The notes under the pieces: generated by a model
What the model was told of the DNA's origin: nothing
The model's database searches: none
What the model saw: only the letters and a program-made list of their open reading frames with translations
Assembly (NCBI GenBank): GCA_001002765.1
Contig: LCMS01000010.1
Location: forward strand, 123-64,122
DNA from: Candidatus Uhrbacteria bacterium GW2011_GWE2_46_68
Lineage (GTDB): Bacteria > Patescibacteriota > Patescibacteriia > UBA9934 > GWF2-40-263
DNA length: 64,000 nucleotides
Reading direction: 5' to 3'
Translations under genes and position numbers: made by a program
Part shown: in pieces, positions 1-52,926 of the stretch
Numbering within the stretch: position 1 is the stretch's first letter
How the letters are laid out: every line of letters starts with the position of its first letter

Positions 1-220
1 GACCCCCTCATGCGATTCTTGAAAAAAATATGTGACCGGTTCGCGTAAGGTTCTTTGATCATCAAACCCGTAGGTCTTATCACCTTCTTTTGTTCCGCGA
101 AGAACAGCTGTGTGAAGTTTGCTGGGCATGCCTGACTCCTTTGGAAAGAACTAAAATGGATCGTCACTTCAAGAGTGTCCCCTTAAAGCAGCGGTGAAAA
201 AGGGACAGTCTTGCTGTCCC

Positions 221-1219
221 CTATACGTCGTGAGTAACCCCGTGACCATGATTGACACGGACTTGCGACCAAAATGTGCAATGATCTTGCGGCCGAACCC
301 TTACTTTTTCATCAAAAACCAATTGCGCAATCTCATTCTTTTGTCCGAAAAATTTCTCGAAATCCACAGAATCTGTCGAATTGAATACCGGAGCCACCTT
401 GTCGTACACGACCGTGGCACCCGGACATGAAGAAAATCCTTGCTCCTCCCAATTCCAGTGACGGGAAAGTCCCATCACACGATCTCCCACAAAAATCGCT
501 TCAGAAATAGCATGAGTCACAAGGAGAATGGTATGAGGTGCAGGTTTCCCCTGCCCCACAGCTTGAATATTTTCCTCGTAGAGAACAAGGAGCATACGCT
601 GCAAATCTTCACGCGTGGCCTCATCTAGTGCACCAAACGGCTCATCCAAAAGAAGGATTTGTGGTTTCATAATCAGGGCCTGGGCAATCGCCACGCGCTG
701 TCGCATACCTCCGGAAAGCTCGTGTGGATATTTGTGCACCGCATCCCCAAGACCAAATCGCACCAAGAGTTCTTCTGCATGTTTGAGATGTTCGCGCCGC
801 AAGCGTCGCCAAAATCCTGTCACTTGACCCCACATTCTCCTTGGAATGGTGGTCAGGTGAAGCTTGAGGCCAAACGCCACATTTTCCACGCTGGTCAAAA
901 ATGGATAGAGCCCGTAGGCCTGATACACAATGCCACGATCCGGACCTGGCCCAACAATCTCGGTCTCTTGCCCATCATAATTCACACTTACAATTCCTGA
1001 CGTAGAACGTGTGATGCCGGCGATGAGGTTTAGCAAAGATGTCTTTCCACACCCACTTGCACCAAGCACTCCAACGATTTGTCCGCGACCGATTGTGAAA
1101 TCCACCCCATGCAAAATATGCTGCTTCCTCACCTGAAACGATGCGTTTGAGACTGTAAGGATGGGCTTCACGAGACACCCCCCTTTGCGTACCAGGGGCA
1201 GAGCTTGCATTGAATCCAT
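221..1219 (-). CDS. ABC transporter ATP-binding protein, NitT/TauT (nitrate/sulfonate/bicarbonate) family
   Basis: Walker A GASGCGKTS, ABC signature LSGGMRQRVAIAQAL and Walker B LLLDEPFGALD in the 332-aa minus-strand ORF. It is immediately downstream of the permease and SBP genes on the same strand. Confidence 0.85.
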   Translation of the reverse strand: MDSMQALPLVRKGGCLVKPILTVSNASFQVRKQHILHGVDFTIGRGQIVGVLGASGCGKTSLLNLIAGITRSTSGIVSVNYDGQETEIVGPGPDRGIVYQAYGLYPFLTSVENVAFGLKLHLTTIPRRMWGQVTGFWRRLRREHLKHAEELLVRFGLGDAVHKYPHELSGGMRQRVAIAQALIMKPQILLLDEPFGALDEATREDLQRMLLVLYEENIQAVGQGKPAPHTILLVTHAISEAIFVGDRVMGLSRHWNWEEQGFSSCPGATVVYDKVAPVFNSTDSVDFEKFFGQKNEIAQLVFDEKVRVRPQDHCTFWSQVRVNHGHGVTHDV

Positions 1220-2016
1220 CGCATCCCCATGTCCATACCAAATCCAAACAGGGCAAGATAAGCAAGATAAGGGTAGACCACGTTCATGTTGAGCAATCGA
1301 GATTGCAGACGGATCCGATACCCGAATCCCACATCTCCCACCAAGACTTCAGCCGCAATGAGAAACACCATGGCCGGTCCGATCTGAAGCCTGATGGCAT
1401 CGAGAAGCTTGGGAAGAATCTGGGGGAACATGATACAAAAAATAATCTCAGTCGTACTCGCCCCAAGGGTACGGGCCTTATCAATACGCTCCTCAGCAAT
1501 ATCCTTAAGCCCCAAATAAATGGTCTGAGCCAAAGTGGGGATCACCCCAAAGGCAATGATCGCTCCGTACATCTTGAGTTCGGTTCCAAACAAAGTGAAG
1601 AACACTGCCATCATGGCTGTGGGAGGAATCTTTGCAAACAGAGAAAGGATCGGGAGGAAAAAGGCTTCCATCCATCGCCACACCCCCATGCTCATACCAA
1701 GAGCAAAGGCGATAAAGACTCCAATTCCAAGACCAAATCCCAGACGTGAAAGCGTGGCAAGCACATCTTCAACGATCCATCGGTCGCCTGTGCGCGGCTG
1801 GGCCGCAAAGATCTTGGAGATCCCCTCACTCATTTGCATCCATGTGGGAATCGTCGTGTCTGTGGGGTTGATCATATGCTGATGAATCGAAAGCCTGGTG
1901 TAGAGCGCAAGAAGAAGCAAGATGCTTGCGGTACCGATTACCCATGTTGCCTTACGGCTCATAGGCGCCCGAATACCTGTAAAGCATCGGAAAAGAAAAA
2001 AACGTTTTGTGGTCAC
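1168..2016 (-). CDS. ABC transporter permease (SsuC/TauC-like, BPD_transp_1)
   Basis: 282-aa ORF with multiple TM helices. It has an EAA-like loop (DIAEERIDKARTLGAS) typical of NitT/TauT permeases and overlaps the ATPase gene start by about 50 nt, as in an operon. Confidence 0.8.
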   Translation of the reverse strand: MTTKRFFLFRCFTGIRAPMSRKATWVIGTASILLLLALYTRLSIHQHMINPTDTTIPTWMQMSEGISKIFAAQPRTGDRWIVEDVLATLSRLGFGLGIGVFIAFALGMSMGVWRWMEAFFLPILSLFAKIPPTAMMAVFFTLFGTELKMYGAIIAFGVIPTLAQTIYLGLKDIAEERIDKARTLGASTTEIIFCIMFPQILPKLLDAIRLQIGPAMVFLIAAEVLVGDVGFGYRIRLQSRLLNMNVVYPYLAYLALFGFGMDMGMRWIQCKLCPWYAKGGVS

Positions 2017-2131
2017 AAGAACCTCCGGTTGGAAAGAACGGTTTTCCCTTAAGCCCTGAACACAAAATTAGTTCAAGTCTTAAGGAAAAGGGTTAGAGGT
2101 TTGCTCTAACCCGCGTGTAGGCGTGATTGGC

Positions 2132-3274
2132 CTACTTGTCAGGCGGAGGAATGATCGGGACATCCTGCGTGTAGACTCCCCCCCTCTGGACATCGAGCAT
2201 GTAGGAGGAATCGAAGACATAGGAAGGAGCAGTCGCCTCGGGTGTGCTCCACTGATGCCCATATCCGATCGTCGGAGACAAAGACACGATCTGGCGCCCC
2301 ACGCAGAACTGGCTCACAAGACCCATGGTCCCGGGGAGTCTACTTCCATCATACACGCCAAGCCCCAGGTCTGGGGTAGCGTAGAACTTGGTCTGCTTGA
2401 CCACGGTTTCCATGTCCTCAAGCCCCAGGTTGCTGAACTTGGAGCCGAGCGCAACGAGCATCTCGTTGTGACGGGCAGGGTCAGCCATGACCAGGTTGAA
2501 GGCGTAGTAGGCATCGATGACCGCACGAGCGAAGTTCTCACCGCCCGGCTTCTCGAGGCTTCCCCGCGCCATGACCACCATGTCGATCACCTCGCCGGGA
2601 ATCGTGGTGCTGTCGAAGAGCACATGCGTGTCAGCACGCCGCCGCAGGGTCTCGAGCACGAACGGATTCCAAACCATGATGGCTCGGATCTCCTGCTTCT
2701 GTTGAAGAGCCGTGGCGGCCGCGCCCGGATCCATGTTCGTGAAGGTGAAATCCGCAGGGTTGAGACCCTGGATGACCAGGTTGCGGGCGAACACGTACTC
2801 GGACACGCTCTTCGCCAGCCCGTACACAGGCACACCCTTCAGGTCATCCACGCTCTTGATCCCGCCATCCACGATCAGAGCGTCGGCCCCGAAGGATGTG
2901 GAAGTCGGAAGGATCGCGACCGTGGGTCGCGAGGCGGCGGGGATCAGGCTGTCCATGTTGGTGAGGGCTGCGGCATCGACCTCTCCGTTGCCATAGAGGT
3001 TGATGCAGGTGTCGTAGTCAGCTTCGCGCAGGACGATATCCACGCCCCAGCGCTCTTCGATCGGACCGACCTTGCCCTTGTCACCATCGATGATCCCGAT
3101 CTCGGAGGCAACCCCGAAGACGGACCAAGACGGGTACTCGCTCCAGGCGAGCGAGAAGCTCGGAAACTCGGCCGAAGGCTGTGAAGCCCCAGGATCGGTT
3201 GCCGGCGCATCCGCAGTCTTCGAAGAACAGGCGATGAGGAAACCCATGAGAGTCAGAGAGAACAGACGACGCAT
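2132..3274 (-). CDS. ABC transporter substrate-binding lipoprotein (NMT1/SsuA-like)
   Basis: The ORF track gives 2132..3427. The likely true start is the internal Met MRRLFSLTLMGFLIACSS (lipobox LIAC|S). The mature region resembles NMT1/THI5-type periplasmic binding proteins. It lies upstream of the permease and ATPase. Confidence 0.65.
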   Translation of the reverse strand: MRRLFSLTLMGFLIACSSKTADAPATDPGASQPSAEFPSFSLAWSEYPSWSVFGVASEIGIIDGDKGKVGPIEERWGVDIVLREADYDTCINLYGNGEVDAAALTNMDSLIPAASRPTVAILPTSTSFGADALIVDGGIKSVDDLKGVPVYGLAKSVSEYVFARNLVIQGLNPADFTFTNMDPGAAATALQQKQEIRAIMVWNPFVLETLRRRADTHVLFDSTTIPGEVIDMVVMARGSLEKPGGENFARAVIDAYYAFNLVMADPARHNEMLVALGSKFSNLGLEDMETVVKQTKFYATPDLGLGVYDGSRLPGTMGLVSQFCVGRQIVSLSPTIGYGHQWSTPEATAPSYVFDSSYMLDVQRGGVYTQDVPIIPPPDK

Positions 3275-3423
3275 GGAACACTCCTTCTGCGACGCGAAGC
3301 GACCAGGCTCCGCTTTGGTGAAATGAACGAAGGGCTTTGGAAAGCCCATGAGGGACGGTTGATCACCATAGTTGGAGGGTTTCCCCAACGCAGGTGGTAA
3401 AAAGAGGAAGAACGTAATCTCCC

Positions 3424-4170
3424 TCACGAAACGGTTTGCCTATACCCTTCTTGCCTGATGGCATGCGATCGCTGACTTTGATCCAATGTTTGCGCTCCGG
3501 CTTGCACACAGCGTTCCATTTCATCCACAATGCCATGCAATTCCATATCCACACTTTCCGCATGTTGAAGCGTGCGAATGCGAGTTAGAAGATCTCCAAG
3601 ACGCTCCACACTTGCCTGAACTTCTCCTATCACTTCTTCTCTGCGCGATTGGATCTTGCGGCGCACTTCGCGCTGCACAATCCCCTCGGCATCTTCAAAC
3701 AAATCATAGGAGATCTCGAGATAACGCACGGCATGGGCAAAAAGCTTATCAAACAAGGTAAGAAGATCTGCCCGCAGTTCATCATTGACACCCTTCCAAA
3801 GACGATCCTCATGCAAACGGCCGGCAATCGTTTCCAAATCACCCATGATGGTTTCGGTTCGATCATCACGATCGCGCGACAATTTTTCTTTGAGATCAAT
3901 CATGGCCTGCTTGCGCGCTTCTTGCACTTCATGTTCTTCTTCAGCCAACACGCCCTCGGTGATCTTTTCTCTGGCAAACAAGACGCGCAATGCCACGGCA
4001 GCTATGGCTCCGGTTGTACCCAGAATCCCTACCGCCAGCGGAATCGCCGGATTGGCAGCCACGAGAATCGCCATAAACCCCAGCATCCCGCCCGTAAACG
4101 GTGCCAGGGTCAGAGGATGACCCAAGAGGCGCTTGTACACCTCTCGCTTCCGTTGTTCGCGGGTTCGCAT
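3424..4170 (-). CDS. hypothetical membrane protein with N-terminal TM helices and long coiled-coil region
   Basis: 248-aa ORF. Hydrophobic segments (FTGGMLGFMAILVAANPAIPLAVGILGTTGAIAAVALRVLF) are followed by a charged heptad-like region rich in E/R/L. No recognisable domain. Confidence 0.45.
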   Translation of the reverse strand: MRTREQRKREVYKRLLGHPLTLAPFTGGMLGFMAILVAANPAIPLAVGILGTTGAIAAVALRVLFAREKITEGVLAEEEHEVQEARKQAMIDLKEKLSRDRDDRTETIMGDLETIAGRLHEDRLWKGVNDELRADLLTLFDKLFAHAVRYLEISYDLFEDAEGIVQREVRRKIQSRREEVIGEVQASVERLGDLLTRIRTLQHAESVDMELHGIVDEMERCVQAGAQTLDQSQRSHAIRQEGYRQTVS

Positions 4171-4179
4171 GGCTGCTCC

Positions 4180-5838
4180 TTAGTAGGACTTTTGGCCCAA
4201 AAGGAAACTGACGCTTTGGGACTCGCCACCCATGCCCACGGGAGGAGCCGCTTTGACGCGGATCCGGTGAGTGGGAATGCCTCGGGAGATGATCTGATCG
4301 GAAACGCTCTGTGCGCGGGCAAGCGCCAGCTTTTCGTTTTCAACCTGATCGCCGTCTGCACGCGCATGTCCCACCACGGTCAAGTAGAACGTGGGGTAGC
4401 TATGCAGTTGGCGCGCGATCTCATCCACGCTGCGCTGGCCCTGAAGGCTAAGCGCACTGGATGCCCGACGAAACTCGATCGCACAAATGCGCAAGTGCCC
4501 CACGGTCGAAAGCTTGTCCCAATCCTCGGCCGAAAGCTCGGGAAGAGTCTCGGCTACACGAACAGCTCCCAAATCTCCCTTGGGAACATCCACAACCCCA
4601 AGCTTGGAGCGAGGATGAAATCCTCCACTGTAGAGATCACGCAGCACGCCGTCGAAATAGAGTTCGCTTGGGTCTGCAACCGGCATGGCGGCAAACGCAC
4701 CTGAAGCTGTGAGCATACGCCCGATATTGAGAATCGTGTCGTGCAAGGTCGGAAGACCCGCAGACTCTCCGGTGGGAAGCAGACCAAACAGGGCATAGTT
4801 TTCCGTGGTGTTCCAAAAGCGAATTCCCTTGACCATGTTATGCGCTTCATCGCTTGAAATGATTTCTCCGGTCTTTTGACCGTCTTCGATGAGAAGAGCA
4901 GCAAACCCTTCATCCCCTCGCGACTGGTAGGAGTAGAGGGTTCGAAGATAAGCGGCAAGAACAACCTTTACCTGTTCAGGGTGATCGCGCAAAAATTCGC
5001 GACGGGCCAACAACACATCAACGATGATGCCGCGTACCTGGGAGGTATCCAGCAGACGATGCACGCCGGGAATCTTGAGCGACTTGGAAAGATAGGGCTC
5101 CCACAGAACAAACGCCTTGCGTTCGGTCGGCGAGGTGGCGCGCAAGAGATTGTAAATCCGCTCCTGGCTGGTCTCGGGGACAAACCAATCTTCGGGCATC
5201 TGGGGAAGGCTCATGTCTGCGCGCACCACTTGGACGAATGTCTCGCTGGGCGAGTCAGGCATGGCAACCACATGAGCGGTTGAGTGATCCAGGTCTTCGA
5301 TTGCGGCAAGTGCCTGCTTGTAGGCGACCATACCGTCTGCTCCGGCGCTTTCATCGATCGCCAGGACAATGGTTCCTGGGAACTGTTCGAGTTTGGCACC
5401 AGTCTTCAAGTTGGCATCAATCGTGATCACAGCCATATCCACATCACCCTTACGCAATGCCTTTTGACGTGCCGCGTAATCACCGCCGTCGTCAACGAGC
5501 TCGAGGGAAAAACCACTTTCGCGAAGTTCACCCGCAAACCCATCAGAACGGAAAACCGAATAGCCCTTGAAGCTGTCGGTGGCAATACGAATGGCATGCT
5601 CGTCAGATGACGTTTTCTTCACGCTTGTCTGTGCGATCAGATTGTCTTGCGCTGAAGGATGAATCACAAACTTCCACACGAGGATGCTCACAAAGGCAAG
5701 CAGAATGATGATCGCAGCACCTACAATGAGACGAAGTGAACGACGACCTTGAGAGGTAGGTTCCATGGAAGGACTCCTTGAGTGGGAAAGAAAGCCGGGT
5801 ATCAGCCGGCAAAAAAAGTTTCGGATTGAAAGGAACAT
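4180..5838 (-). CDS. OmpA C-terminal domain protein with N-terminal SBP-like (NMT1/SsuA-like) domain
   Basis: 552 aa. N-terminal TM helix. The central region is paralogous to the SBP at 2132..3274. The C-terminus (TVVGHARADGDQVENEKLALARAQSV...) matches the OmpA/MotB peptidoglycan-binding domain. The start may be the internal Met near 5766. Confidence 0.65.
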   Translation of the reverse strand: MFLSIRNFFCRLIPGFLSHSRSPSMEPTSQGRRSLRLIVGAAIIILLAFVSILVWKFVIHPSAQDNLIAQTSVKKTSSDEHAIRIATDSFKGYSVFRSDGFAGELRESGFSLELVDDGGDYAARQKALRKGDVDMAVITIDANLKTGAKLEQFPGTIVLAIDESAGADGMVAYKQALAAIEDLDHSTAHVVAMPDSPSETFVQVVRADMSLPQMPEDWFVPETSQERIYNLLRATSPTERKAFVLWEPYLSKSLKIPGVHRLLDTSQVRGIIVDVLLARREFLRDHPEQVKVVLAAYLRTLYSYQSRGDEGFAALLIEDGQKTGEIISSDEAHNMVKGIRFWNTTENYALFGLLPTGESAGLPTLHDTILNIGRMLTASGAFAAMPVADPSELYFDGVLRDLYSGGFHPRSKLGVVDVPKGDLGAVRVAETLPELSAEDWDKLSTVGHLRICAIEFRRASSALSLQGQRSVDEIARQLHSYPTFYLTVVGHARADGDQVENEKLALARAQSVSDQIISRGIPTHRIRVKAAPPVGMGGESQSVSFLLGQKSY

Positions 5839-5914
5839 TTCTTTAACCCGAGCTCACAGGAAAACCTATGGTCTCGGGAGAAAGGCCATCACCGTCTGTG
5901 ATGGCTTTGGGGGT

Positions 5915-6874
5915 CTAACCTTCGAGGATTATCCAGAGAAGGACGCCGAATACCCCGCAAATAACGATCATGAAAAAAAGAATCACCAGAAACGGAGTCT
6001 CCTCTTCTTTGACCGCTTCCGCACTCGGCTGGGATGGAGCGGCCGCCTGATCCACTTCCTCGGGAGGATCTTCCCCGATCGGATGGTTGCCTTGCACCGA
6101 AGTGCCAAGCCCCTTCACAACCGCCATGGCCACATCGGTTGAAAGTGGCGCGATGGTCAAGTAGGCATCAGTGGCGAGTTGCGGATCCCGCACAGAGGAA
6201 ACCTCAGCAAACACCTGACGCACGCGCTCTTCGAGTGCCTGCGCATTGTTTGCATTCTGATAGGTGTCGGCCTGGGTGGCCAAAGTGTGTTCAGTATTCA
6301 TGTCGATACCGACCGCGTGAATCAGGATCCCGCGCGAGCGAATCTCGGGCGTGAACCTTTCGACCATTTTTTCTTCTCGTGCCGGATTGGCCTGGCCATC
6401 GGTGAGCACCAAGAGGGTGTACATTCCCTCATTGTGTTGTGCCTCCCGCATGTACAGGAGTTCATCGGCAGCCGCCTTCATGAAGGTACCAAGCGGCGTG
6501 GATCTGTCCGGATTGATCGCCTGGAGAGATTGGAGAAGTGCAGCGTGATCCGAAGGTCCGAGCTTTTGGATCCATTCATACCGTTGTACACCGCTCATGA
6601 CGAGGACGCCGATATAGGTCTCCGGTGGTGCATTGCGGATCGCTTGCTCCAGGATGCGCTTGGCAGCGTCCATCCTGCTTTCTGATGCCTCTCCTCCCAT
6701 ACGCTCGTTCATGCTCCCCGAGGCATCGAGAAGCACGACAATGCAATCGTGGACACTCGTCTTTTCGATTGGCCGCGTGACCATCATTCCATCCATTTCC
6801 AAACCTGCGAAGGTCGGAAGACAGAAAAGCATCGAGACGAAAAGCAGACAAAGGATGCGACTGATGCCTCCCAT
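5915..6874 (-). CDS. von Willebrand factor type A (vWA) domain protein, secreted/membrane anchored
   Basis: Signal peptide MGGISRILCLLFVSMLFCLPTFAG. MIDAS motif in IVVLLDASGSMNE. C-terminal hydrophobic anchor (FLVILFFMIVICGVFGVLLWIIL). Confidence 0.7.
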   Translation of the reverse strand: MGGISRILCLLFVSMLFCLPTFAGLEMDGMMVTRPIEKTSVHDCIVVLLDASGSMNERMGGEASESRMDAAKRILEQAIRNAPPETYIGVLVMSGVQRYEWIQKLGPSDHAALLQSLQAINPDRSTPLGTFMKAAADELLYMREAQHNEGMYTLLVLTDGQANPAREEKMVERFTPEIRSRGILIHAVGIDMNTEHTLATQADTYQNANNAQALEERVRQVFAEVSSVRDPQLATDAYLTIAPLSTDVAMAVVKGLGTSVQGNHPIGEDPPEEVDQAAAPSQPSAEAVKEEETPFLVILFFMIVICGVFGVLLWIILEG

Positions 6875-6884
6875 GACTGCCTCC

Positions 6885-8792
6885 TTAGAAATCGAAGTCT
6901 GCGGTGGTGGATGCCTCGCCGGTCACACGCGTGAGAACGAACTCCACGCGGCGATTGGCTGCAGCTTCTTGCTCACTGCGTGGGCGGGCGACCATGGGCT
7001 CGCCAACACCTACACCATCAAAGGCGATCTGACTCTCGTCGATCCGCTTCCCTTTCTCTTCCGCAAACTGAAGGAAGGAGGAACGCACGGCCTCTGCCCG
7101 GTCACGGGTGAGCTTCTGTGCTTCCTGCAAGGTCTCACGAGGATTGGCGCCTCCGGTCTTGAACGTTCCGCTTGAAACAATCGCAATCACCTTGGCAATG
7201 GCCTCCAAAGCAAGCGGTTCACCATTGTAGAAGTACTGGTAGTCCGTCGGGCTCGTGCCTGTGCGCTTGAGCATACCGTTTTCGATCGCTGCATTGACGA
7301 AGTCACGCAGCACAGCCGTAGGATCCGCATGTCCGCGAATGACGAGGACCGCGCGGGGATACTTGTCGAGAAGCGTGAGAGCACGATCATACTGATCGCG
7401 ATACTGATCCTCCGAAAACGTCATCTGATTGGGCTCAAAGCTGATCGTGAAGGAAAGCATGCTGCGGCTGCCGAAACCTTCGGAGTCAAGGCCGCTGATC
7501 TCGGTGCGAACCGCTTCGGCATTGAACCTGGGCTTGGCCTCTACCGTGAGAGACTCAGACAAGGACTGCTTGAAGATCTCGTCTTGCCAGAAGGTATCCG
7601 GCACGCGGGCAAAGGCAATGGACTTGGTGGTCTGTCCCAAGCTCTCGGCCATCCTGTTTGCTTGGGTGGCGAGCGCATCGAATCCGTGTTCGTTTTTGGG
7701 ATCGATGAACGCCAGGTTGCCGGCATAGCCGACGAACTGGGCATCAAGGAGAAGTCCGTGAGCATCCTCGGAGGTGGGGAGCACACCCGTGCCCAGGATT
7801 TCCTGGGACAGGGCGAGGAGCCCCTGATACTCGGTCGAGCCGGAGACCTCATGCGCCTTGCGAAGCCTGATCACGGCTTCCACGGCTTCGAGGTAAGCGA
7901 CCGCAAAGGCGCGCACCTCATTGACATGGTCACGATAATAGGTCGGGTTGACCCAGTAGGTATCGGCGATCGTGAACACGCGCTGGGCCGTGGACACGAG
8001 AACACGGGCGTTCTTGACCGTGCCTTCAGCACCTGTGCCAACCACATCGAGACCGCCGGTCAAACCGATCATGTCGGGCGTGATCGCAAAGGCCGCGTCG
8101 GCCTGGCCGCTGCGCAGCGCTTCGATCGGACTTCCCTTGCCCGTCAGGGTATCGCACCACACGATCTGCACATCGGTCCACGACAGATGATCGTCGGTCA
8201 AAATCCCATAGAGCATGGACATGTGCGGGCCGCCGCGCTGGAGCGCGACGCGCTTACCCTTCAGATCCTTGATGGACTTGATCCCCTCTTGCACAACCAG
8301 ATGGTCGCCCTGCGACCAGGTCATCTGGAACGCGTAGAGGGGGCAGGTCGCGGGATCCGCGCACAGCCCCTGCTCGAAGATGGCATTGGTGACCATCTCA
8401 TAGGTGCCGCGCAGATAGGGTGTACGCCCTTCCTTGTAGGCCTGCGCCTGGAGCTTCATGTCATCGCCGGCAGCCAGCTGCAGGTTGAGGCCGTGCTTTG
8501 CAAAGATCGTGCCTTCGCGCGTGCGAAAACCGCCGTTGCCGTAGAAGGTGGCGTAGTCCCCACCCCAGGCGATGAAGCCGGTCTGGATGGGAGTGCCGTC
8601 AAACACCTTCCCTTGGAGGAAAGCGACGTCGCTTGGTGCGACTGCCTGCTCCTGTGAAGGCTTGATCTCGGGAGAAACGTTCTGAGAGGTTCCTGGCTGC
8701 GAGTTGTCGATCGGCATGCAGCCGACAAGGACGAAGATCAGGATCGCCAGAAAAAAACGGAGGTAGGAACAGGAAAAATAACGAGTGCACAT
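6885..8792 (-). CDS. OmpA C-terminal domain lipoprotein with SBP-like domain
   Basis: The ORF track gives 6885..8882. The probable start is the internal Met MCTRYFSC...LVGC (lipobox). The SBP-like middle region is paralogous to 2132..3274 and 4180..5838. The C-terminal OmpA-like domain reads RGHADPTAV...RDRAEAVRSSF...RRVEFVL. Confidence 0.65.
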   Translation of the reverse strand: MCTRYFSCSYLRFFLAILIFVLVGCMPIDNSQPGTSQNVSPEIKPSQEQAVAPSDVAFLQGKVFDGTPIQTGFIAWGGDYATFYGNGGFRTREGTIFAKHGLNLQLAAGDDMKLQAQAYKEGRTPYLRGTYEMVTNAIFEQGLCADPATCPLYAFQMTWSQGDHLVVQEGIKSIKDLKGKRVALQRGGPHMSMLYGILTDDHLSWTDVQIVWCDTLTGKGSPIEALRSGQADAAFAITPDMIGLTGGLDVVGTGAEGTVKNARVLVSTAQRVFTIADTYWVNPTYYRDHVNEVRAFAVAYLEAVEAVIRLRKAHEVSGSTEYQGLLALSQEILGTGVLPTSEDAHGLLLDAQFVGYAGNLAFIDPKNEHGFDALATQANRMAESLGQTTKSIAFARVPDTFWQDEIFKQSLSESLTVEAKPRFNAEAVRTEISGLDSEGFGSRSMLSFTISFEPNQMTFSEDQYRDQYDRALTLLDKYPRAVLVIRGHADPTAVLRDFVNAAIENGMLKRTGTSPTDYQYFYNGEPLALEAIAKVIAIVSSGTFKTGGANPRETLQEAQKLTRDRAEAVRSSFLQFAEEKGKRIDESQIAFDGVGVGEPMVARPRSEQEAAANRRVEFVLTRVTGEASTTADFDF

Positions 8793-9176
8793 GGCGCCTC
8801 CTTGGGAAACGGACGAAGTGTCCGATTGGTGAGTTGTTGACCCCTTGTAAGGAGCGTCAGAAGAGAGGTTTTTTGTCTCCAAACCCCTTCGTTCTGAACG
8901 CGAGACCTTAGGGTTTTTTGCCTAAAATGTCAACGATCTGTAGGCGAATCTTTAAGGAAAAAAACAAAAAAAGCCCATTTTTGGCCTCTTCTTGTTTATC
9001 CCTTTATCACACAGGATAAAACAGCAATGTTTGTAAAAAAATTCCACTTTGAATATTTGGTCTGATAATGTTCGTGATCTTTTAGGATAGCTACAGATGT
9101 GGTGTCAGGTCTGACACCAAAATACAAGAATACAAGGCAAAACAAAAAAGAACCTATAGGCTCTCTTTGAAAATTT

Positions 9177-9818
9177 CTATTCCCTTTTGGACGACCCTTG
9201 CTCTAACGTTTTATCTAAAAGGAACGTTTCGTCTCCTGCAAGTGAAGCAAGTGCGATGAAAACTGATCCGGACAACCTCACGGGAGTTTTAAGAATTTGT
9301 CCTAATGTCACGGCTGCCGCACGATGATGTCCTTCGACACAAACAATTTTTTTATGATCTTCACGCACAAGGCCTATCAACTCGGTCGGAGCAGGAAACT
9401 GCTTCATGAGTGACACAACGGCCGAATGATGAAGAAAAAAATCTTGCGGTTCGGGCAGGGCCAGCAACTCGGCAAACGATACTGTATTTTTCTCTTCTGT
9501 ATATTTCTGCCATCCGTTAAACGGCCCCATCAAAAGATTTGGCAAAAAAACTTGTGGATCTTTCACTTCGTATAATGCCCAAGCACGATCTTGAAGATGA
9601 AGTTGCAAAGCGGTGTGCACGCGCCAACTCTCCCAATTTGGCCACCCTTTGATCCTGGTCGCACACTCAACCCATGAAAAATTGTGTGCCTCGCGCTCTT
9701 TCCATCCTGCAAACACTTCTCCCCAACCAAGTGAACGGACAAAAGAAAGTTGTGATTCAAAATGGAACATAAGGAGGCTTCCAGTTCTTTTGAAAAATGG
9801 CCATGGAAAATAAGTCAT
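9177..9818 (-). CDS. hypothetical protein
   Basis: 213-aa ORF with local low-GC codon usage. No recognisable motifs. Confidence 0.4.
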   Translation of the reverse strand: MTYFPWPFFKRTGSLLMFHFESQLSFVRSLGWGEVFAGWKEREAHNFSWVECATRIKGWPNWESWRVHTALQLHLQDRAWALYEVKDPQVFLPNLLMGPFNGWQKYTEEKNTVSFAELLALPEPQDFFLHHSAVVSLMKQFPAPTELIGLVREDHKKIVCVEGHHRAAAVTLGQILKTPVRLSGSVFIALASLAGDETFLLDKTLEQGSSKRE

Positions 9819-10281
9819 GCCATCTTTTGTTTATGAATATTTCCTCTCTCATCCGCCCCTCCTCTACAAACCCCAAAAACTTATACAAACATATCGCTCG
9901 TTTATTTGCATCCACAACTCCCAAGTTCACCTTGTGTAATTTGAGTGTGCAAAATGCATAATCCAAAAGCCAAATCAATGCTTGCTTCCCATATCCTTTT
10001 CCGCGATACGCATCCTCTCCGATTGCGATAAAAAGTTCCGCGTTCCTGTTCATCTTCTGGATATTCGATAAGCCCATAAAACCAATGGGTTCATCGTCCA
10101 CACAAAAAGTAAAAAACTTTTTTTGTGAATTCTTTTTATAAGCCTCAAACCATTTTCTTTCTTTGGCAAGAGTTGTTTTCTCCCCAGAACAATCTCCAAT
10201 ATACTGACTGACCTGTGGGTTATTGAGCCACTTTACGCGAAGAGGAATATCAGATGATTTGTGTGGACGTACCTGCAACAT
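9757..10281 (-). CDS. GNAT family N-acetyltransferase (RimJ/RimL-like)
   Basis: Acetyl-CoA binding motif region (FIAIGEDAYRGKGYGKQALIWLLDYAF). The ORF track extends to 10353, but that would overlap the tRNA. The Met at MLQVRPH (ATG at 10279-10281 minus) is the more plausible start. Confidence 0.65.
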   Translation of the reverse strand: MLQVRPHKSSDIPLRVKWLNNPQVSQYIGDCSGEKTTLAKERKWFEAYKKNSQKKFFTFCVDDEPIGFMGLSNIQKMNRNAELFIAIGEDAYRGKGYGKQALIWLLDYAFCTLKLHKVNLGVVDANKRAICLYKFLGFVEEGRMREEIFINKRWHDLFSMAIFQKNWKPPYVPF

Positions 10282-10325: not shown

Positions 10326-10401
10326 TGGTCGGGCTGGCGGGACTCGAACCCACGGCCTCTGCGTCCCGAACGCAGCGCTCTACCTGCTGAGCTACAGCCC
10401 G
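10326..10401 (-). tRNA. tRNA-Pro: tRNA-Pro (anticodon CGG)
   Basis: The reverse complement reads CGGGCTGTAGCTCAGCAGGTAGAGCGCTGCGTTCGGGACGCAGAGGCCGTGGGTTCGAGTCCCGCCAGCCCGACCA. It has a 7-bp acceptor stem with a C1-G72 pair (typical of bacterial tRNA-Pro), a D-loop AGCTCAGCAGGTAGAGC, an anticodon stem-loop CTGCG-TTCGGGA-CGCAG (anticodon CGG), a T-arm GGTTCGAGTCC and an encoded CCA. Confidence 0.8.
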
Positions 10402-10646: not shown

Positions 10647-11618
10647 TCAATAATCCAAACCTTCCCGCGCTTTCACTCCAGAATAAAAATAATGTTTTTT
10701 CATCTGCACATCAGAGACAAGATGTGCGACATCTAATAACGCGGTAGGGGCATGACGTCCGGTTAAAATAAGCTCGACTCCTTCGGGCTTATTTTTTATA
10801 AGCGATAGCACTTCCTCCATGGTTATCAACCCGAGCGCTATACAGCTATTAATCTCATCCAGTAATACCACATCACACTCGGACGCAAAAAAATCTTGTG
10901 CGGCCCTCAACCCTCTCTGCGCCTCTTCGTGATCTTTTGGAGTTAAAGAAAAATCAAATCGCCCTGTGGTCGCATCCACCCGATCGCGACCCGTCACCAC
11001 ATAGGAAATTCCCAAACGATCGAGAGAAAAACGTTCGCTGTAATGTGATCCTCCTTTATCAAAATACACGACCCCTGCTTTTTTCCCCGCCCCATAGGCA
11101 CGAATAATTTCTCCAAGCGCCGCCGTAGTCTTTCCTTTCCCTTCACCTGTAAAAATTTGCACAAGCCCATATCCTTGTCGCCCGGCGATACGATCATCTG
11201 CTTTTGGGATTCCGCTCATGCGACGATACACCTTCAAAACCTCTCGCACATTTTCTTTGATCTCCTCGGGATCCGCGTCTTTAGGATCATGCCAAAGATA
11301 TTGACCATGTTCCTCGCTTAACAAAACTTCAACGTCAAGAACCTTGATCGCATAAAAAACTCCAAACACGCAATGAGTTTCTTCATTTCTCTGAAAAGAC
11401 CAAAGATCAGTATGAATGATCTGCGCGGCCTGCGGATCTGTCACGAGACCGGTCTCCTCTGCAATCTCACGAGCCAATGTTTCCAAAGGGTGATCCCCCT
11501 CCTCCATTCTTCCTCCGGGCAACTCCCATTGATGCGCACCCTTATTTTCCATCAACAGCAAAATCTTTCCCAAAGGATTCACTAAAAGAACTTTTTGTGC
11601 GATAAACGCTTGGATCAT
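10647..11618 (-). CDS. cobO: NUDIX hydrolase domain fused to cob(I)yrinic acid a,c-diamide / cob(I)alamin adenosyltransferase (CobO/BtuR-type)
   Basis: N-terminal NUDIX box GGRMEEGDHPLETLAREIAEETGL. C-terminal P-loop GEGKGKTTAALGEIIRA plus the rest of the CobA/CobO-family adenosyltransferase fold (VVLLDEINSCIALG...TGRHAP). Confidence 0.7.
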   Translation of the reverse strand: MIQAFIAQKVLLVNPLGKILLLMENKGAHQWELPGGRMEEGDHPLETLAREIAEETGLVTDPQAAQIIHTDLWSFQRNEETHCVFGVFYAIKVLDVEVLLSEEHGQYLWHDPKDADPEEIKENVREVLKVYRRMSGIPKADDRIAGRQGYGLVQIFTGEGKGKTTAALGEIIRAYGAGKKAGVVYFDKGGSHYSERFSLDRLGISYVVTGRDRVDATTGRFDFSLTPKDHEEAQRGLRAAQDFFASECDVVLLDEINSCIALGLITMEEVLSLIKNKPEGVELILTGRHAPTALLDVAHLVSDVQMKKHYFYSGVKAREGLDY

Positions 11619-11622
11619 AGCG

Positions 11623-12375
11623 TTATTTTTTTACCGCATCCACAAGAATAAAATTTGAAGTGAATAGATATTCTTTATCTCCTAACGTCACCTTTTCCGG
11701 TGGAACGAATGCAACGGTAAAATTGGTTCGCTCATCTTTGAAAACTTCCTTCAAAAAACTCAAAGCTTCTTCCTGTGTATAATTCGGCTCGTTTTCCACA
11801 ATCCAAAGACTACCATCAGGATAAGTACGTTTAATGTCTGCTGCGAAATCCATAATGATACGCCCTCCAGATTTCAAAACACGTCTCATTTCCAAAAAAA
11901 TGATTTGAAACACCTGCCTTGGAAAAAGATGCATCGTACCCACAGAAAAGACTCCAACAAATTCGCCGTCCTCAAAAGGAAAAGGCTCAACCACATTCAT
12001 GGTCTTTGTGATGAGTTTGTTTTTGAGATGGTCAGGTGTGACACGAACCAGTTTTTGTAAAGCGCCTTCGTCAATATCCACAGCCACAACCTCATCAGCT
12101 TTTTCCAATAACACATGATTAAATCTCCCATCGCCGGCGCAGAGATTCAACCATTTGCCTCCCGTCTCCATGTGGTTTAGTAAATTTGTCGTAGCCAAAT
12201 CTTCCGTCCCCCAAACAGAAGAATGAGAAAGGTCGGCATACTCAATCTCATCAGTGTAGATATATTTCTTTTCATCAGCTTTCATAAACGAGAAAACCCC
12301 GAGAAATACTTCGGGGTTTTGTTTTTTTAAGTAAAAATTTAGCTGCACCCGCTTGTTGCTCCACAATTCAGACAT
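11623..12375 (-). CDS. class I SAM-dependent methyltransferase
   Basis: SAM-binding motif I (LNLCAGDGRFNHVLLEKADEVVAVDIDE). 250 aa. Located between the cobO-like gene and nrdJ on the same strand. Confidence 0.65.
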   Translation of the reverse strand: MSELWSNKRVQLNFYLKKQNPEVFLGVFSFMKADEKKYIYTDEIEYADLSHSSVWGTEDLATTNLLNHMETGGKWLNLCAGDGRFNHVLLEKADEVVAVDIDEGALQKLVRVTPDHLKNKLITKTMNVVEPFPFEDGEFVGVFSVGTMHLFPRQVFQIIFLEMRRVLKSGGRIIMDFAADIKRTYPDGSLWIVENEPNYTQEEALSFLKEVFKDERTNFTVAFVPPEKVTLGDKEYLFTSNFILVDAVKK

Positions 12376-15300
12376 TTATAGCATGAACCGTTTCGCACCA
12401 TGATTGATCCGCAGGTCATACAGGCAGGAGCATCGGATTGATTATCAAACGTGGAGGTAAGACCGGTTGTTGTTTTCTCCGACTGCGCAAATAACGTGGA
12501 TTGTGCTTCAGGACTTTCTTCCACCGCCACGGTCACGACCTGTGGCTTGTTCACGGGCTCAGCCATGATATTACTGTCAGTCGGGTCTTCGGTGACATGC
12601 ACGCCCACGGTCATCTGCACATCCCGAGGTAAAAATTTCATGGCCAACCAACGAAACAAATAATCAATAATGGATTTGGCGATTCGAATTTGTGGGTTAT
12701 TCGTATAGCCTGATGGCTCAAAACGCATATGCACAAATTTATTGACCAACACTTCCAGCGGCACCCCATATTGCAATCCGATCGAAACCGATGTGGCAAA
12801 ACAATCCATCAACCCTCGAATCACTGACCCTTGCTTGGACATCGTGATAAAAATTTCCCCCGGCGTCCCATCATCATAGAGCCCCACATTGATATAGCCC
12901 TCATGACTACCCACACTAAACTTATGCGTGATCGAACGGCGCTCATCGGGCAAGCGGCGACGGCGCGGTTTATCCACAATGGATGGGGTAACTTTTGGCA
13001 CTACGGAAATCACGGATGCCGTGGTTTTTTCCGCCTCTCTAATCCCCTCTTCTTTTTGTCGATCCTCGTTTACCTTTTTGGAATCTTTTTCTTTTGTCGT
13101 CGTCAACGCTTGTTGACGTTTAGATCCATCACGATATACCGCAATCGCTTTGATCCCCATTTTCCATCCTTCCATATACACTTTTCCGATATCCTCCGGA
13201 GTAGAGTCGTGCGGCAAATTGACGGTCTTGGAAATGGCTCCGGAAATAAACGGTTGTACAGCCGCCATCATGCGCAAATGCCCCATATAGTGAATTGTGC
13301 GCTTTCCGTTGACGGGTTTGAACGCGCAATCAAAGACGGACAAATGCTCTTCTTTGAGATGTGGTGCACCTTCGATCGTATCATTGGTATCAATGTAAGT
13401 CGTGATATCGCGTTGCTGTTCCTCGGTATATCCCAATCGCTGTAAAGCTTCTTTCACACAACGATTCACAATTTTCATCATGCCACCACCCACAAGCCAC
13501 TTATATTTAACAAGCGCAATGTCGGGCTCCACTCCGGTCGTATCGCAGTCCATCAAAAAAGCAATAGTGCCGGTGGGAGCCAAAACGGAAATTTGCGCAT
13601 TGCGCGATCCATGCACTTCTCCATCCTCGACAACTTTATTCCAAATGAGACAAGATTCTTTGAGCAAAGCGGGATCAATCCCCTTCTCTTGCAAATGACA
13701 CGCTTCGTCGCGATGCATGCGCATCACTTGCAAAAACGAATCGCGATTCTTTTTATATCCCGCAAACGCTCCGCGCTTTTCCGCAATCTTTGTCGATTGA
13801 TGATAACAATATCCGCTCAACAGTGCTGTGATCGCTGCGGCAAGATTGCGACCTTCTTGCGAATCATAAGCATATCCGTGACTCATCAAAAGCGCACCGA
13901 GATTTGCATACCCAATCCCCAAGGAACGATAATCATGACTGTTGCGTTCAATCGCAGGGGTTGGATAACTTGAATTTCCCACAATGATTTCCATGGCTGT
14001 AATAATAATGCGGCTCACATGCTCAAATGCCTTTACATCAAACTCCATGCGACCGTTCACCTCTTTGCGCAACTTCATGAGATTCAGCGAGGCGAGATTA
14101 CACGCTGTGTCGTTAAGGAACATATATTCACTGCAAGGATTGCTCGCATGAATGCGATCGGTTCCTTTGCAGGTATGCCACGTATTGATGGTTGTATCGT
14201 ATTGAATCCCGGGGTCTCCGCACTGCCAAGCCGCATCACACATTTTTTTCATGAGATCTTTAGCACGATAACGCAAACTTTCTTTCCCTCCCACGACTTC
14301 ATGAGTGACCCATTCGCGATCATCTTCCACTGCGCGCATAAACTCATCGGTCACACGTACAGAGTGATTGGCATTTTGAAAAAACACGGAACTGTAGGCG
14401 TTGCCATCAATCGAACCGTCATACCCGGCATCCATAAGCGCCCAAGCTTTTTTTTCTTCAATCGCTTTTGCCGTAATAAAATCTTCAATATCAGGATGAT
14501 CGATATTCAAAATAACCATCTTGGCCGCACGACGCGTTTTACCACCGCTTTTTATCACCCCGGCAAAAGCGTCAAACCCACGCATAAAAGAAACCGGACC
14601 TGAAGCGCGCCCGTTGCTCCCGCGCAAATATTCTTGTTTGGAACGTAAAATGGAAAGATTCACTCCAGCCCCAGATCCTCCTTTAAACAACATGCCTTCG
14701 GTCACACACAAATTCAAAATGGACCGCATGTCGTCTTGCACCGCATTGATAAAACACGCAGAACATTGCGGATACGAATTCACACCCACATTAAACCAAA
14801 CCGGAGAATTAAATGCGGCCATTTGATTGGTAAGAATATACAAAAGTTCGTGCTCATACACGTCCGCATCTTCCTTGGTTTGAAAATATCCGTCACAACG
14901 CCCCCATTTTGCAATCGTATTGGCAACACGGGTCATGAGTTGTTTGACCGAAGATTCGCGTTCCGACTCCCCCACTTTTCCACGAAAATATTTTGACACC
15001 ACGATATTGGTGGCAGACTGCGACCACGATGCCGGAACCTCCACGCCTTTTTGTTCAAACACGGCCTCTCCTTTTTCGTTTGTGATGCGCGCATCGCGAA
15101 TATCCCAAACCATTTCATCAAAAGGATGCACTCCTTGGCGGGTAAAAAATCTGGAAATCACAAGCCCATCTCCATACACCGGCTCACGTGTACCAATGGC
15201 CGCCAGACTCTCGTACATGGCATAGTGTCTGGCCACATGAGGAAGGTTGTGATCAATAAAAGTAAGAGTAATCACGTCGCGGATATCGGAAAAACACGGT

Positions 15301-15563: not shown

Positions 15564-15864
15564 ACGGCGAGTACGAAAGAAAGAGTAAGAGATAAGAAAA
15601 GATCTTCGTGATTCTTCTTTTATCTCCCTCCCTTTGGAAGGTTGAAAAACTCCCCCTAAGACACGAAAAGACAATCCCCACGGATTATCTTTTTATGTCA
15701 TGAAGAAAGAAGGACGTCTTTCTTCTTTTCCTCCATCGAAGCGACAAACCACTCGTCCGTACGTTCTACCATATGTTGTGGTCTGCTCTTATTTTAGACC
15801 ACGACATATGGGGTGTCAAAAGAAAAACTTATCCACAGAATCGCACAAAAAACGACGCTCAAAA

Positions 15865-34876: not shown

Positions 34877-34879
34877 ATA

Positions 34880-38380: not shown

Positions 38381-38390
38381 GAAAAAAATT

Positions 38391-39650: not shown

Positions 39651-39653
39651 AAG

Positions 39654-40946: not shown

Positions 40947-40949
40947 AGG

Positions 40950-42299: not shown

Positions 42300-42311
42300 A
42301 GTGTCTCCTCC

Positions 42312-42920: not shown

Positions 42921-42925
42921 TTACT

Positions 42926-52924: not shown

Positions 52925-52926
52925 AC

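Follow-up and report, generated by a model that had tools for sequence, protein, structure and literature searches.

Gene content of the operon and its surroundings

Uhrbacteria are tiny groundwater bacteria of the CPR/Patescibacteria. The window, i.e., the whole 64,000-nucleotide stretch analysed here, opens within a compact 10-kb operon of eight minus-strand genes (A to H) that runs from window position 9041 to approximately 940 bp beyond position 1. The part inside the window holds genes A to G and the first 129 nt of H. An earlier note on this DNA had counted seven genes in the block and placed its second boundary beyond the window; an ORF check and longer contigs from the same organism bear out both.

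Gene A (6885–8792) encodes a 635 aa lipoprotein with an LVGC lipobox, in which an NMT1/SsuA-like binding domain (PF09084, E 5.8e-10) is joined to a C-terminal OmpA-like domain; its start at 8792 is called by all assemblies, and the open frame extends to 8882. The product of gene B (5915–6874, 319 aa) is a VWA-domain protein (PF00092 and PF13519) with a signal peptide, a C-terminal transmembrane helix and an intact MIDAS motif (DASGS, residue 50). Gene C (4180–5838, 552 aa) is distantly paralogous to A and colinear with it, and has a membrane-anchored product that combines an N-terminal substrate-binding-like domain (weak TIGR03427 and SsuA matches) with a C-terminal OmpA-like domain of the peptidoglycan-binding type (PF00691, E 4.4e-11). 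Pfam and NCBIfam searches gave no significant match for gene D (3424–4170, 248 aa), a membrane protein whose N-terminus is hydrophobic and whose remainder is charged, helical and of coiled-coil type; it keeps its place within the operon in 33 of the 80 loci of other phyla, at 20–34% identity.

Gene E (2132–3427, ORF of 431 aa) encodes the substrate-binding lipoprotein of an importer. It resembles TIGR03427 (E 2.3e-43, 148.6 bits, under the 333.9-bit cut-off) and shows a distant relationship to the structures of SsuA and TauA; translation likely begins at 3274, an alternative start called by several assemblies, giving 380 aa with a LIAC lipobox. Gene F (1168–2016, 282 aa) is an ABC transporter permease (PF00528, E 1.4e-13) with a TauC-type permease as its top NCBIfam match and 50–62% identity to its operon partners in other phyla. 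Gene G (221–1219, 332 aa) encodes the ATP-binding subunit (PF00005, E 1e-29), closest to the NCBIfam models for taurine and nitrate ABC ATPases, with intact Walker A (GASGCGKT), signature (LSGGM) and Walker B (ILLLDE) motifs. The last gene, H, contributes only its 5′ end to the window (1–129); complete in a longer contig of the same organism (L003, 11091–12131), it encodes 346 aa and is distantly related to the RaSEA family of radical SAM proteins (TIGR01210, E 3.5e-20, 72.5 bits, under the 212-bit cut-off), with a CX4CX2C motif kept across phyla. The family scores of A and C are likewise under curated cut-offs.

Genes E, F and G thus share the three-component architecture of NitT/TauT ABC importers (TauABC, SsuABC, NrtABCD and the urea-carboxylase-associated TIGR03427), which are also their top family matches, although all scores fall well under equivalog cut-offs. 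The operon further differs from those systems in being larger and conserved as such, adding two OmpA-tethered, binding-like proteins, the VWA and coiled-coil proteins and the RaSEA-like radical SAM protein; in other phyla it additionally has an AAA ATPase. We know of no characterised counterpart.

Upstream of A lies a conserved minus-strand region (8793–9041) that moves with the operon. Homology to the three relatives R1, R2 and R4 begins at 9041, 9005 and 9001, respectively, and none begins earlier. The region includes a terminator-like hairpin (8966–8992) and a TTGACA box (8928–8933) with TAAGGT 17 nt downstream (8905–8910), which would leave a leader of approximately 110 nt. The promoter is termed putative because the promoter scan score stayed under threshold, and the upstream region gave no Rfam riboswitch match. 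Beyond it on the minus strand are the native hyp197 (9177–9770) and a GNAT acetyltransferase gene (9757–10281), with GC of 0.46 and 0.39 and GC3 of 0.41 and 0.42, followed by tRNA-Pro(CGG) at 10326–10401, where the earlier note had placed it. On the other side, the 10 kb past the window hold the rest of H, an orphan gene (I) that is also GC-rich, DUF4178, PBP, MurE and an MFS protein.

Composition of the block

The GC content of positions 1–8882 is 0.550, versus 0.455 for 9177–64000. In 1-kb sliding windows the values are 0.49–0.59 within the block and 0.41–0.50 elsewhere; the contrast drawn by the earlier note therefore stands, while its figures of 55–60% versus 40–45% were slightly overstated at both ends. 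The long antisense ORFs it listed (2123–3184, 3649–4704 and 7329–8657) are all present, and the abrupt drop in composition at the block edge is reflected in a GC of 0.35 over 8901–9200. On a 3-kb scale, the block lies 3.9–9.5 sd over the backbone mean of 0.456 (sd 0.012), and its tetranucleotide distance reaches z = 7.6. The GC-normalised dinucleotide signature showed no anomaly on the same scale (z ≤ 2.0), so the compositional shift is essentially one of GC alone. Codon usage places most of this shift at third positions, with a GC3 of 0.48 (gene G) to 0.75 (gene E) in the seven block genes versus approximately 0.32–0.53 in nearly all backbone ORFs.

Distribution, insertion site and age

Very probably, the operon was acquired by an ancestor of a small Uhrbacteria clade from a non-CPR bacterium rich in GC, and has been ameliorating since. 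Its distribution supports a foreign origin. Of 326 matching stretches in a genome collection, approximately 50 of the best 80 loci carry A-B-C-D-E-F-G(-H) in colinear order; they belong mostly to Verrucomicrobiota, with others in Planctomycetota, Myxococcota, Desulfobacterota, Omnitrophota, Hydrogenedentota and Poribacteria. Within the CPR, the operon was found only in the small Uhrbacteria clade and one Parcubacteria MAG. A comparison of homologues separates the two parts of the contig: homologues of protein A have 92, 80 and 79% identity and then at most 52%, in non-CPR taxa, while those of the backbone PBP grade through 94, 91, 87, 74, 70 and 68 down to 62% and are named Uhrbacteria, Falkowbacteria, Parcubacteria or Patescibacteria. 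Among the best 80 of the 326 loci, the non-CPR proteins nearest to those of the operon are only 42–64% identical. The nearest loci by distance have 63–72% GC and the same compact order, D and E being adjacent and, in L007 and L010, H adjoining G, from which we infer a GC-rich donor; a GC-rich CPR intermediary is possible. Neighbour joining sets the Uhrbacteria copies on a long branch whose placement is poor, so the tree alone is no proof of the direction of transfer.

The relatives show that the insertion site is ancestral and the acquisition old. In the sister species R1 (L089 and L090), A to H are followed by I, DUF4178, PBP and MurE, as in the window organism. The relative R4 (L167), with RNR and PBP 88% and 85% identical in amino acids to those of the window organism, keeps the order tRNA-Pro(CGG), one or two genes, hyp197 (65% aa identity) and operon site. 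There, hyp197 is followed by the operon promoter region, which after 14 nt runs into the final 152 nt of H, with I coming next. This is a deletion scar from which approximately 9.6 kb has been lost, and the acquisition is older than the split of lineages that share only about 73% backbone DNA identity.

The alternative that survives best, although we consider it unlikely, is an IS-bounded unit resembling a composite transposon, with secondary transfers within or between Uhrbacteria accounting for the three carrier lineages. In R2 (L087/L088, approximately 75% nucleotide identity), homology begins and ends exactly at the operon ends and the flanks differ: downstream is the start of a new ORF, and upstream an ORF is represented by its 3′ end, the final 40 aa of which match annotated IS30-family transposases at 46–49%, a statistically weak match (E 0.02–0.07). 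In a contig from the ENA sample of R2, gene I adjoins FtsH without the operon, and the left flank of R1 is also different. However, the R2 flanking ORFs are visible only as fragments, L087 and L169 possibly belong to separate genomes, and the window and its 10-kb extension are without any IS. Moreover, the window organism, R1 and R4 have the insertion site in common, whether judged from the right side, the left or both, which fits one ancestral insertion.

Under the Lawrence and Ochman model of amelioration, foreign DNA moves toward host composition, fastest at third codon positions. The operon is behaving in this way. Polarised synonymous third-position changes run from GC to AT in excess, with 118 versus 70 in the opposite direction on the window branch (p 6e-4) and 109 versus 66 on the R1 branch (p 1.4e-3), whereas those of the backbone PBP and MurE are balanced (42:44 and 50:45). 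The process has yet to run its course, even though synonymous divergence between carrier lineages is saturated (dS 0.9–2.8), and the link expected under the model between synonymous rate and remaining GC3 was not significant gene by gene (rho −0.43, p 0.29).

This ongoing loss of GC, set against backbone genes at equilibrium, is one reason to think it very improbable that the genes are native, never transferred horizontally, and owe their GC to selection or to mutational bias acting locally. That reading draws on the host-like dinucleotide signature, on GC3 values that are alike gene by gene in three lineages, and on gene I. This neighbour is restricted to the clade, keeps its position in relatives that lack the operon and shows a GC3 of 0.73–0.74 in every relative; it appears to be native, so high GC by itself is no proof of foreignness in this genome. 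Against a native origin, the operon is absent from the many Uhrbacteria with PBP 62–74% identical, and from a relative at 65% in which synteny is partly kept; protein A lacks any homologue between 52% and 79%; and the nearest relatives of the operon are non-CPR. Elsewhere its GC3 follows the host, from 0.40–0.51 in a 42% GC MAG to 0.91–1.00 in MAGs of 66–72% GC, and its genes are therefore not intrinsically GC-rich.

Classical tRNA-associated islands, by the criteria of Hacker and Kaper, have an integrase, a tRNA target and flanking direct repeats. The block recalls them in its deviant GC and codon usage, its patchy distribution and the tRNA-Pro gene 1.2–1.4 kb from its boundary, and the earlier note had pointed to that gene as a possible integration site. 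A 20-nt palindrome, TGGTGTCAGACCTGACACCA (9099–9120), also lies immediately outside the operon, occurring once in the 64-kb window where 0.08 chance matches are expected, and related tandem and inverted copies stand just beyond gene H, outside the window (L003, 12167–12412). The same structure nevertheless lies downstream of gene I on the relative contig L169, with no operon adjoining, and for this reason we take it as probably an intergenic element of the host rather than an att site. A recent integrase-mediated or ICE-like island at tRNA-Pro, with its integrase beyond the window, has only the slightest likelihood: two native genes, host-like in composition, separate the tRNA from the block, in an order kept in R4, and the insertion is old. 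The window was searched and, as first noted, has neither an integrase nor a repeat of the tRNA 3′ end; the 10 kb past position 1, where the earlier note would have looked, has no integrase either, and no tRNA-derived repeat flanks the block at either boundary. The window gives no sign of how integration took place, and this genome none of recent mobility. The term genomic island holds in the broad sense of acquired DNA whose composition is still unlike that of the host, and not in the sense of the tRNA-targeted model.

That DNA of another organism was joined to an Uhrbacteria backbone by an assembler, in a chimeric or mis-binned contig, is barely credible and was rejected: the composition does change abruptly where an AT-rich intergenic region lies, an operon of this kind is typical of other phyla and two related metagenomes have it on short contigs ending near its boundaries, but at least six assemblies from differing samples and assemblers (ENA, JGI, three NCBI MAGs and Logan) agree across the junction at 100% identity, on contigs of 18–161 kb with backbone on both flanks, the far junction (H-I-DUF4178-PBP) is common to R1, remnants of the promoter and of H persist in R4 between hyp197 and I, and the window organism and R1 have diverged alike in operon and backbone (85% versus 81–83% nucleotide identity; dS 0.36–0.80 versus 0.66–0.70). 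The GC-rich block is real and no assembly error.

Proposed history and function

We found no discussion of this operon or genome in the searchable literature. The closest parallels are the horizontally acquired regions and islands surveyed in Patescibacteria MAGs from aquifers (PMC12455944). Like them, the block comprises several genes, is atypical in composition, is set in a streamlined CPR genome, has relatives in groundwater bacteria that are phylogenetically distant, and encodes a transport function. Compared with these, the present operon is old, fixed in a small clade and without mobility genes, and it is resolved to the base level in its boundaries, ancestral site, scar and directional substitution bias.

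In the history that we propose, a self-contained unit of upstream hairpin, promoter region, leader, genes A to H and terminator would have been transferred and inserted between hyp197 and I, both of them native. After fixation it would have been inherited vertically, with purifying selection keeping it functional while its GC drifted slowly toward the 45–46% of the host, and one relative would later have deleted it and kept a scar. The acquisition is old and fixed and amelioration slow; it is this slow decay of GC that leaves the block conspicuous, chiefly at third codon positions.

The dN/dS of 0.07–0.26 across all eight genes, along with the intact ABC and MIDAS motifs, indicates that the operon genes are functional. 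On the strength of their family assignments, E, F and G probably form a NitT/TauT-type ABC importer for a small solute. A and C probably present binding-protein-like domains tethered to peptidoglycan through their OmpA-like domains, with B and D as probable membrane-anchored partners, and H may be a radical-SAM enzyme acting on the imported compound; the roles of A to D and H, as well as the transported substrate, are guesses. An event of this type is ordinary, but its documentation here is unusually good.

Composition, gene content and integrity of the block

The first 8.9 kb of the window contains 55.0% GC, compared with 45.5% in the remaining 55 kb, in agreement with the GC-rich block described in the earlier note. 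In 1-kb windows, GC ranged from 0.49 to 0.59 within the block and from 0.41 to 0.50 outside it, and 3-kb windows placed the block 3.9–9.5 sd above the backbone mean of 0.456 (sd 0.012), with a tetranucleotide distance of up to z = 7.6. The anomaly was strongest at third codon positions (GC3 of 0.48–0.75 in the seven block genes versus about 0.32–0.53 in nearly all backbone ORFs); the proposed sliding-window GC, tetranucleotide and codon-usage checks all found the shift. The GC-normalised dinucleotide signature of the block was not deviant, with z at most 2.0 in 3-kb windows, so that the anomaly lies essentially in GC. As previously described, GC falls abruptly in the AT-rich intergenic region (0.35 at 8901–9200), a tRNA-Pro(CGG) lies at 10326–10401, and the block holds three long antisense ORFs; the minus-strand frames are taken as the real genes because family matches and cross-phylum conservation sit on them. 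A further, small GC-rich patch (0.59 at 20001–20500) was seen on L003, the longer contig of the same organism, at 19965–20828, ~8.7–9.6 kb beyond window position 1, where a 287-aa gene has a GC3 of 0.56 and no family match.

Gene G, the ATPase at 221–1219, is encoded on 19 public contigs, and the six of these that were retrieved run on for 10 kb past position 1 of the window (position x of the window being L003 position 11220 − x). They contain an eighth operon gene, H, of which just the first 129 nt lie inside the window, followed by a terminator, a spacer rich in repeats, gene I, which is GC-rich and on the opposite strand, and then normal backbone of ~45% GC with DUF4178, PBP and MurE. All eight operon genes are on the minus strand. 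Gene A encodes a lipoprotein with an NMT1/SsuA-like binding domain and an OmpA-like domain (its true start gives 635 aa, not 665 aa), B a VWA protein that keeps its DxSxS motif intact and has a membrane helix at the C terminus, C a distant, membrane-anchored paralogue of A in which the OmpA domain is clear, and D a membrane-anchored helical protein of no family; the family scores of A and C were below curated cut-offs. E is a binding lipoprotein nearest to TIGR03427 and SsuA/TauA (E-values of 2.3e-43 for TIGR03427 and 1.2e-14 for SsuA, yet short of curated cut-offs), with SsuA and TauA as its PDB neighbours (E 5e-5 to 6e-4). F is a BPD_transp_1 permease scoring above the PF00528 cut-off, and G is an ABC ATPase (PF00005, E 1e-29) whose Walker A (GASGCGKT), signature (LSGGM) and Walker B (ILLLDE) motifs are intact and whose best NCBIfam matches, taurine and nitrate ATPases, were under their cut-offs. 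With 72.5 bits against TIGR01210 (cut-off 212), H is predicted to be no more than distantly related to the RaSEA radical SAM family and is not a member by score; its CX4CX2C motif is kept in homologues from several phyla, no archaeosine genes were found near it when an ArcS/ArcTGT association was looked for, and PDB sequence searches with H and I returned nothing useful. Contig LCMG01000012 (GCA_001002565.1) has a strain-level 36-bp deletion (window 122–157) that removes the H start codon and the preceding 28 nt, and H may be disabled or re-started there.

The sharp compositional boundary had raised the alternative that the block was joined to this genome by the assembler. This fails, as the junction is reproducible in at least six assemblies and conserved in two related Uhrbacteria, R1 and R4. 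Apart from the 36-bp deletion in LCMG01000012, the six retrieved contigs match the window at 100% identity across 11 kb, with identical junctions on contigs of 18–161 kb from differing samples and assemblers. The sister species R1 (contigs L089 and L090, 99% identical in their overlap) carries A–H followed by I, DUF4178, PBP and MurE, in the same order as in the window organism. DNA identity between the two is 85–88% in the operon and 81–83% in the backbone, and dS is similar (0.36–0.80 and 0.66–0.70, respectively). The GC-rich block is not an assembly chimera. A MAG with a genuine 10-point GC jump is a warning for automated contamination filters, and composition-based decontamination would wrongly discard the block.

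Several other features of the window were observed. Seven consecutive large ORFs (416–708 aa) without a Pfam match at E 1e-5 occupy 33626–45052, where AT skews are strong and of opposite sign (+0.34 at 37–38 kb, −0.33 at 43–44 kb); the ORF at 42926–45052 is one of only two on the plus strand among the 53 ORFs of a greedy longest-ORF list for the window. The two highest dinucleotide-signature deviations in the window lie at 39–42 kb and 55–58 kb. At 10647–15674, the neighbours of a 1111-aa class II (B12-dependent) ribonucleotide reductase (RNR) with ATP-cone and TSCPD domains are a methyltransferase and a NUDIX-CobA (ATP:corrinoid adenosyltransferase) fusion, in what looks like a pairing of cofactor activation and enzyme; CobA apparently lacks the NUDIX domain in both relatives examined (contigs L094 and L167). 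Two tandem paralogous subtilisin-like proteases of 685 and 693 aa, each with FG-GAP repeats, are encoded at 50867–55008, downstream of a glycosyltransferase and sugar-nucleotide gene cluster.

Foreign origin and amelioration

The phylogenetic-affinity check proposed in the earlier note separates block from backbone, the relatives of protein A being mostly outside the CPR and those of the backbone PBP within it. Homologues of protein A occur at 92, 80 and 79% identity, one of them named ‘Patescibacteria group bacterium’, and identity then drops straight to 52% or less, where hundreds of full-length matches follow, Verrucomicrobia included. The relatives of PBP grade smoothly from 94% to 62% identity, and their taxon-specific names are all Uhrbacteria, Falkowbacteria, Parcubacteria or Patescibacteria; despite many Uhrbacteria PBP relatives at 62–74%, no protein A homologue of 52–79% identity was found. 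The operon is sporadic among the Uhrbacteria, being present in the window organism, R1 and a further relative, R2 (L087/L088), deleted in R4, and absent from the partly syntenic locus of L094.

In a scan of one genome per species, with the source species not among the matches, 326 stretches encoded a protein A relative, the best at 52% identity. About half of the best 80 of these 326 loci are from Verrucomicrobiota, the rest coming from Planctomycetota, Myxococcota, Desulfobacterota, Omnitrophota, Hydrogenedentota, Poribacteria, others and one Parcubacteria MAG (SG8_24), and about 50 of the 80 keep the whole order A-B-C-D-E-F-G(-H). Most of these colinear loci have two extra genes, one between D and E for a coiled-coil protein and one between G and H for an AAA ATPase. 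In one retrieved locus, L086, the coiled-coil protein is encoded at 15108–15929 and a 603-aa AAA ATPase with a CDC48-like domain at 18831–20642, directly upstream of the RaSEA-like gene, with equivalent positions in most non-CPR loci. The pairing of VWA and AAA proteins in other phyla suggests a MoxR-like chaperone module that is missing from the Uhrbacteria version. The window organism has its compact operon form in common with the loci nearest in sequence, which are from two MAGs labelled Rickettsiales (66–72% GC) and from Myxococcota (63–70% GC); the former label is doubtful given the GC content. Across other phyla, operon GC3 equals that of the host, from 0.40–0.51 to 0.91–1.00, and thus these genes are not GC-rich by necessity.

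Neighbour-joining trees of A, C, EFG and a five-gene concatenate identified no donor. The Uhrbacteria sit on a long branch with an unstable sister group, which is DeMMO2 or ‘Rickettsiales’-labelled MAGs according to the gene analysed; in most bootstrap replicates of the EFG and five-gene concatenates they fall beside a large mixed clade. A second CPR-labelled carrier, Parcubacteria bacterium SG8_24 (L039, LJNP01000002.1, 5479–14700), has the longer operon form at 64% GC and GC3 of 0.83–0.93; its presence there reflects either a binning error or a separate transfer into a CPR bacterium of high GC.

The decay of foreign composition at this locus can be measured against backbone genes. When synonymous third-position changes were polarised with R2 as outgroup, GC-to-AT changes in the operon outnumbered AT-to-GC changes on both the window branch (118 vs 70, p 6e-4) and the R1 branch (109 vs 66, p 1.4e-3); for PBP and MurE the same test yielded 42:44 and 50:45. 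The block is therefore losing GC, with the backbone at equilibrium. As a rough estimate, a starting GC3 near 0.9, as in the nearest loci, and ~1 synonymous substitution per site would give the observed mean near 0.6. A second test, of per-gene GC3 against dS, yielded no significant correlation.

Age, limits and mobility of the transferred unit

Only five homologues of gene I were found, all in this clade, and their contigs led to L167, the contig of R4, where amino acid identity to the window organism is 88% for RNR, 85% for PBP, 65% for hyp197 (a gene of the native flank) and 62% for I. The order on L167 is RNR, cobA, tRNA-Pro(CGG), a 335-aa gene and hyp197, then 106 nt homologous to the operon upstream region, 14 nt and the final 152 nt of H; beyond these lie I, DUF4178, PBP and MurE. 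A never-occupied empty site was considered for L167 and dropped once the promoter and H remnants had been aligned. Judged from this alignment, the junction at L167 7670–7965 (JGI 3300045115, contig Ga0438312_004905), in which the operon upstream region fronts a 49-codon H remnant, is a deletion scar, with ~9.6 kb lost in R4. Because R4 keeps this scar, the operon was at the same site in the common ancestor, making the insertion older than the split of lineages that are ~73% identical in backbone DNA. The R4 locus also identifies the tRNA and hyp197 as conserved backbone with no part in the insertion site, and gene I as native despite its GC3 of 0.73–0.74.

Gene I was considered as part of the island and rejected, given its same position in relatives without the operon, its clade-only homologues and its equally high GC3 throughout. 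It is a 334-aa orphan (L003 12536–13540, minus strand, ~1.3–2.3 kb beyond window position 1) with a low-complexity C-terminal half rich in Arg, Pro and Glu, and its GC3 is 0.73–0.74 in every relative against a host GC of 45–51%. That a native orphan is as GC-rich as the operon shows that genes of this genome are mislabelled when judged by GC alone.

Homology to the window organism starts at window 9001–9041 in all relatives, and in R2 it stops 31 nt past the H stop codon, at the end of the terminator hairpin. The transferred unit therefore comprises an upstream hairpin, promoter region, leader, A–H and terminator. The conserved TTGACA-N17-TAAGGT fell below the threshold of the sigma-70 scanner, so the operon promoter is only a putative one. 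An Rfam E-value scan of the whole locus found no riboswitch in the conserved leader and returned only the tRNA and a chance miRNA match on an inverted repeat.

The tRNA-Pro had been suspected as the insertion site because of its proximity; two native genes separate it from the unit end, 1.2 kb away, which argues against this. As the earlier note had observed for the window, integrases and tRNA-derived repeats are lacking: neither the block nor the 10 kb on each side of it yielded any integrase, transposase or other mobility gene, or any such repeat, and the suggested search beyond position 1 returned neither an integrase nor a partial tRNA-Pro repeat. The strongest tRNA-like match of the region covers 17 nt within gene A and is consistent with chance. 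The block thus shares deviant composition and patchy distribution with classical genomic islands, but lacks their tRNA insertion, direct repeats and integrase. It also differs from a composite transposon, in which two copies of the same IS bracket the cargo, as no IS is present in the window or its 10-kb extension. Both R2 flanks differ from those of the window organism and hold only ORF fragments at contig ends; the last 40 residues of the upstream one weakly resemble proteins annotated as IS30-family transposases (E 0.02–0.07), and secondary IS-mediated movement of the operon in R2 is possible. The left flank of R1 encodes a Cys-rich repeat protein.

A 20-nt palindrome at window 9099–9120 (core GGTGTCAGGTCYGAC), unique in the window, has tandem and inverted copies directly after H (L003 12167–12412). 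It was rejected as an att site or target duplication because the same structure occurs 3' of gene I on another relative's contig, L169, beside FtsH and without the operon; the motif is missing from R4. We regard it as a native, partly terminator-like intergenic element. This clade-specific element (also at L090 4680–4740 and L169 2140–2440) takes the form of the simple 20-nt palindrome, 18-nt tandem repeats, or 31-nt inverted repeats around a spacer of 142 nt in the window organism that is almost absent in R1; a terminator-like hairpin lies in each arm. The element may be a duplicated bidirectional terminator, a small mobile element or a protein-binding site.

Possible function and significance

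A defence-system reading was dropped, since the operon matched no known system and PADLOC gave only marginal coiled-coil and AAA hits. The operon does contain the parts of a NitT/TauT-family ABC importer, namely an ATP-binding subunit with the Walker and signature motifs (G), a BPD_transp_1 permease (F) and a binding protein resembling the SsuA/TauA/NrtA fold (E); no characterised close homologue was found. Going by its protein families, the operon is predicted to serve in uptake, its importer being accompanied by accessory proteins anchored to the cell wall and by a radical SAM enzyme. Purifying selection acts on all eight genes (dN/dS 0.07–0.26).

A more specific reading, which we put forward as rather unlikely, is that the acquired genes are the compact core of a widespread, uncharacterised envelope-associated system that processes a specific small molecule by an undescribed mechanism. 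Such a system may consist of two binding-protein-like subunits tethered to peptidoglycan, a VWA protein, a membrane protein with a coiled coil, the NitT/TauT importer and the RaSEA-like radical SAM enzyme, and may capture the small molecule and then chemically process it. As one operon the system is conserved in hundreds of genomes, those of Verrucomicrobiota, Planctomycetota and Myxococcota among them, with the AAA ATPase added in most phyla. On this reading, its retention under purifying selection in a metabolically minimal CPR bacterium suggests that it supplies a nutrient or cofactor precursor which the cell cannot make. The operon, common in Verrucomicrobiota and related phyla, seems uncharacterised, as no description of it was found, and the minimal version here is a possible guide for experiments on its function.

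Literature searches on this genome and on horizontal transfer of ABC transporters in Uhrbacteria returned nothing specific. A large-scale record of horizontal acquisition, covering genomic islands and transporter genes, already exists for aquifer Patescibacteria (PMC12455944). The present locus is therefore a well-resolved new example rather than a new phenomenon, and offers a clean, checkable case in which the unit is delimited to the base and the ancestral site is fixed by the R4 deletion scar. CPR bacteria have tiny genomes and depend on scavenging, and for such organisms the gain of whole uptake systems from unrelated neighbours is one route to new livelihoods.
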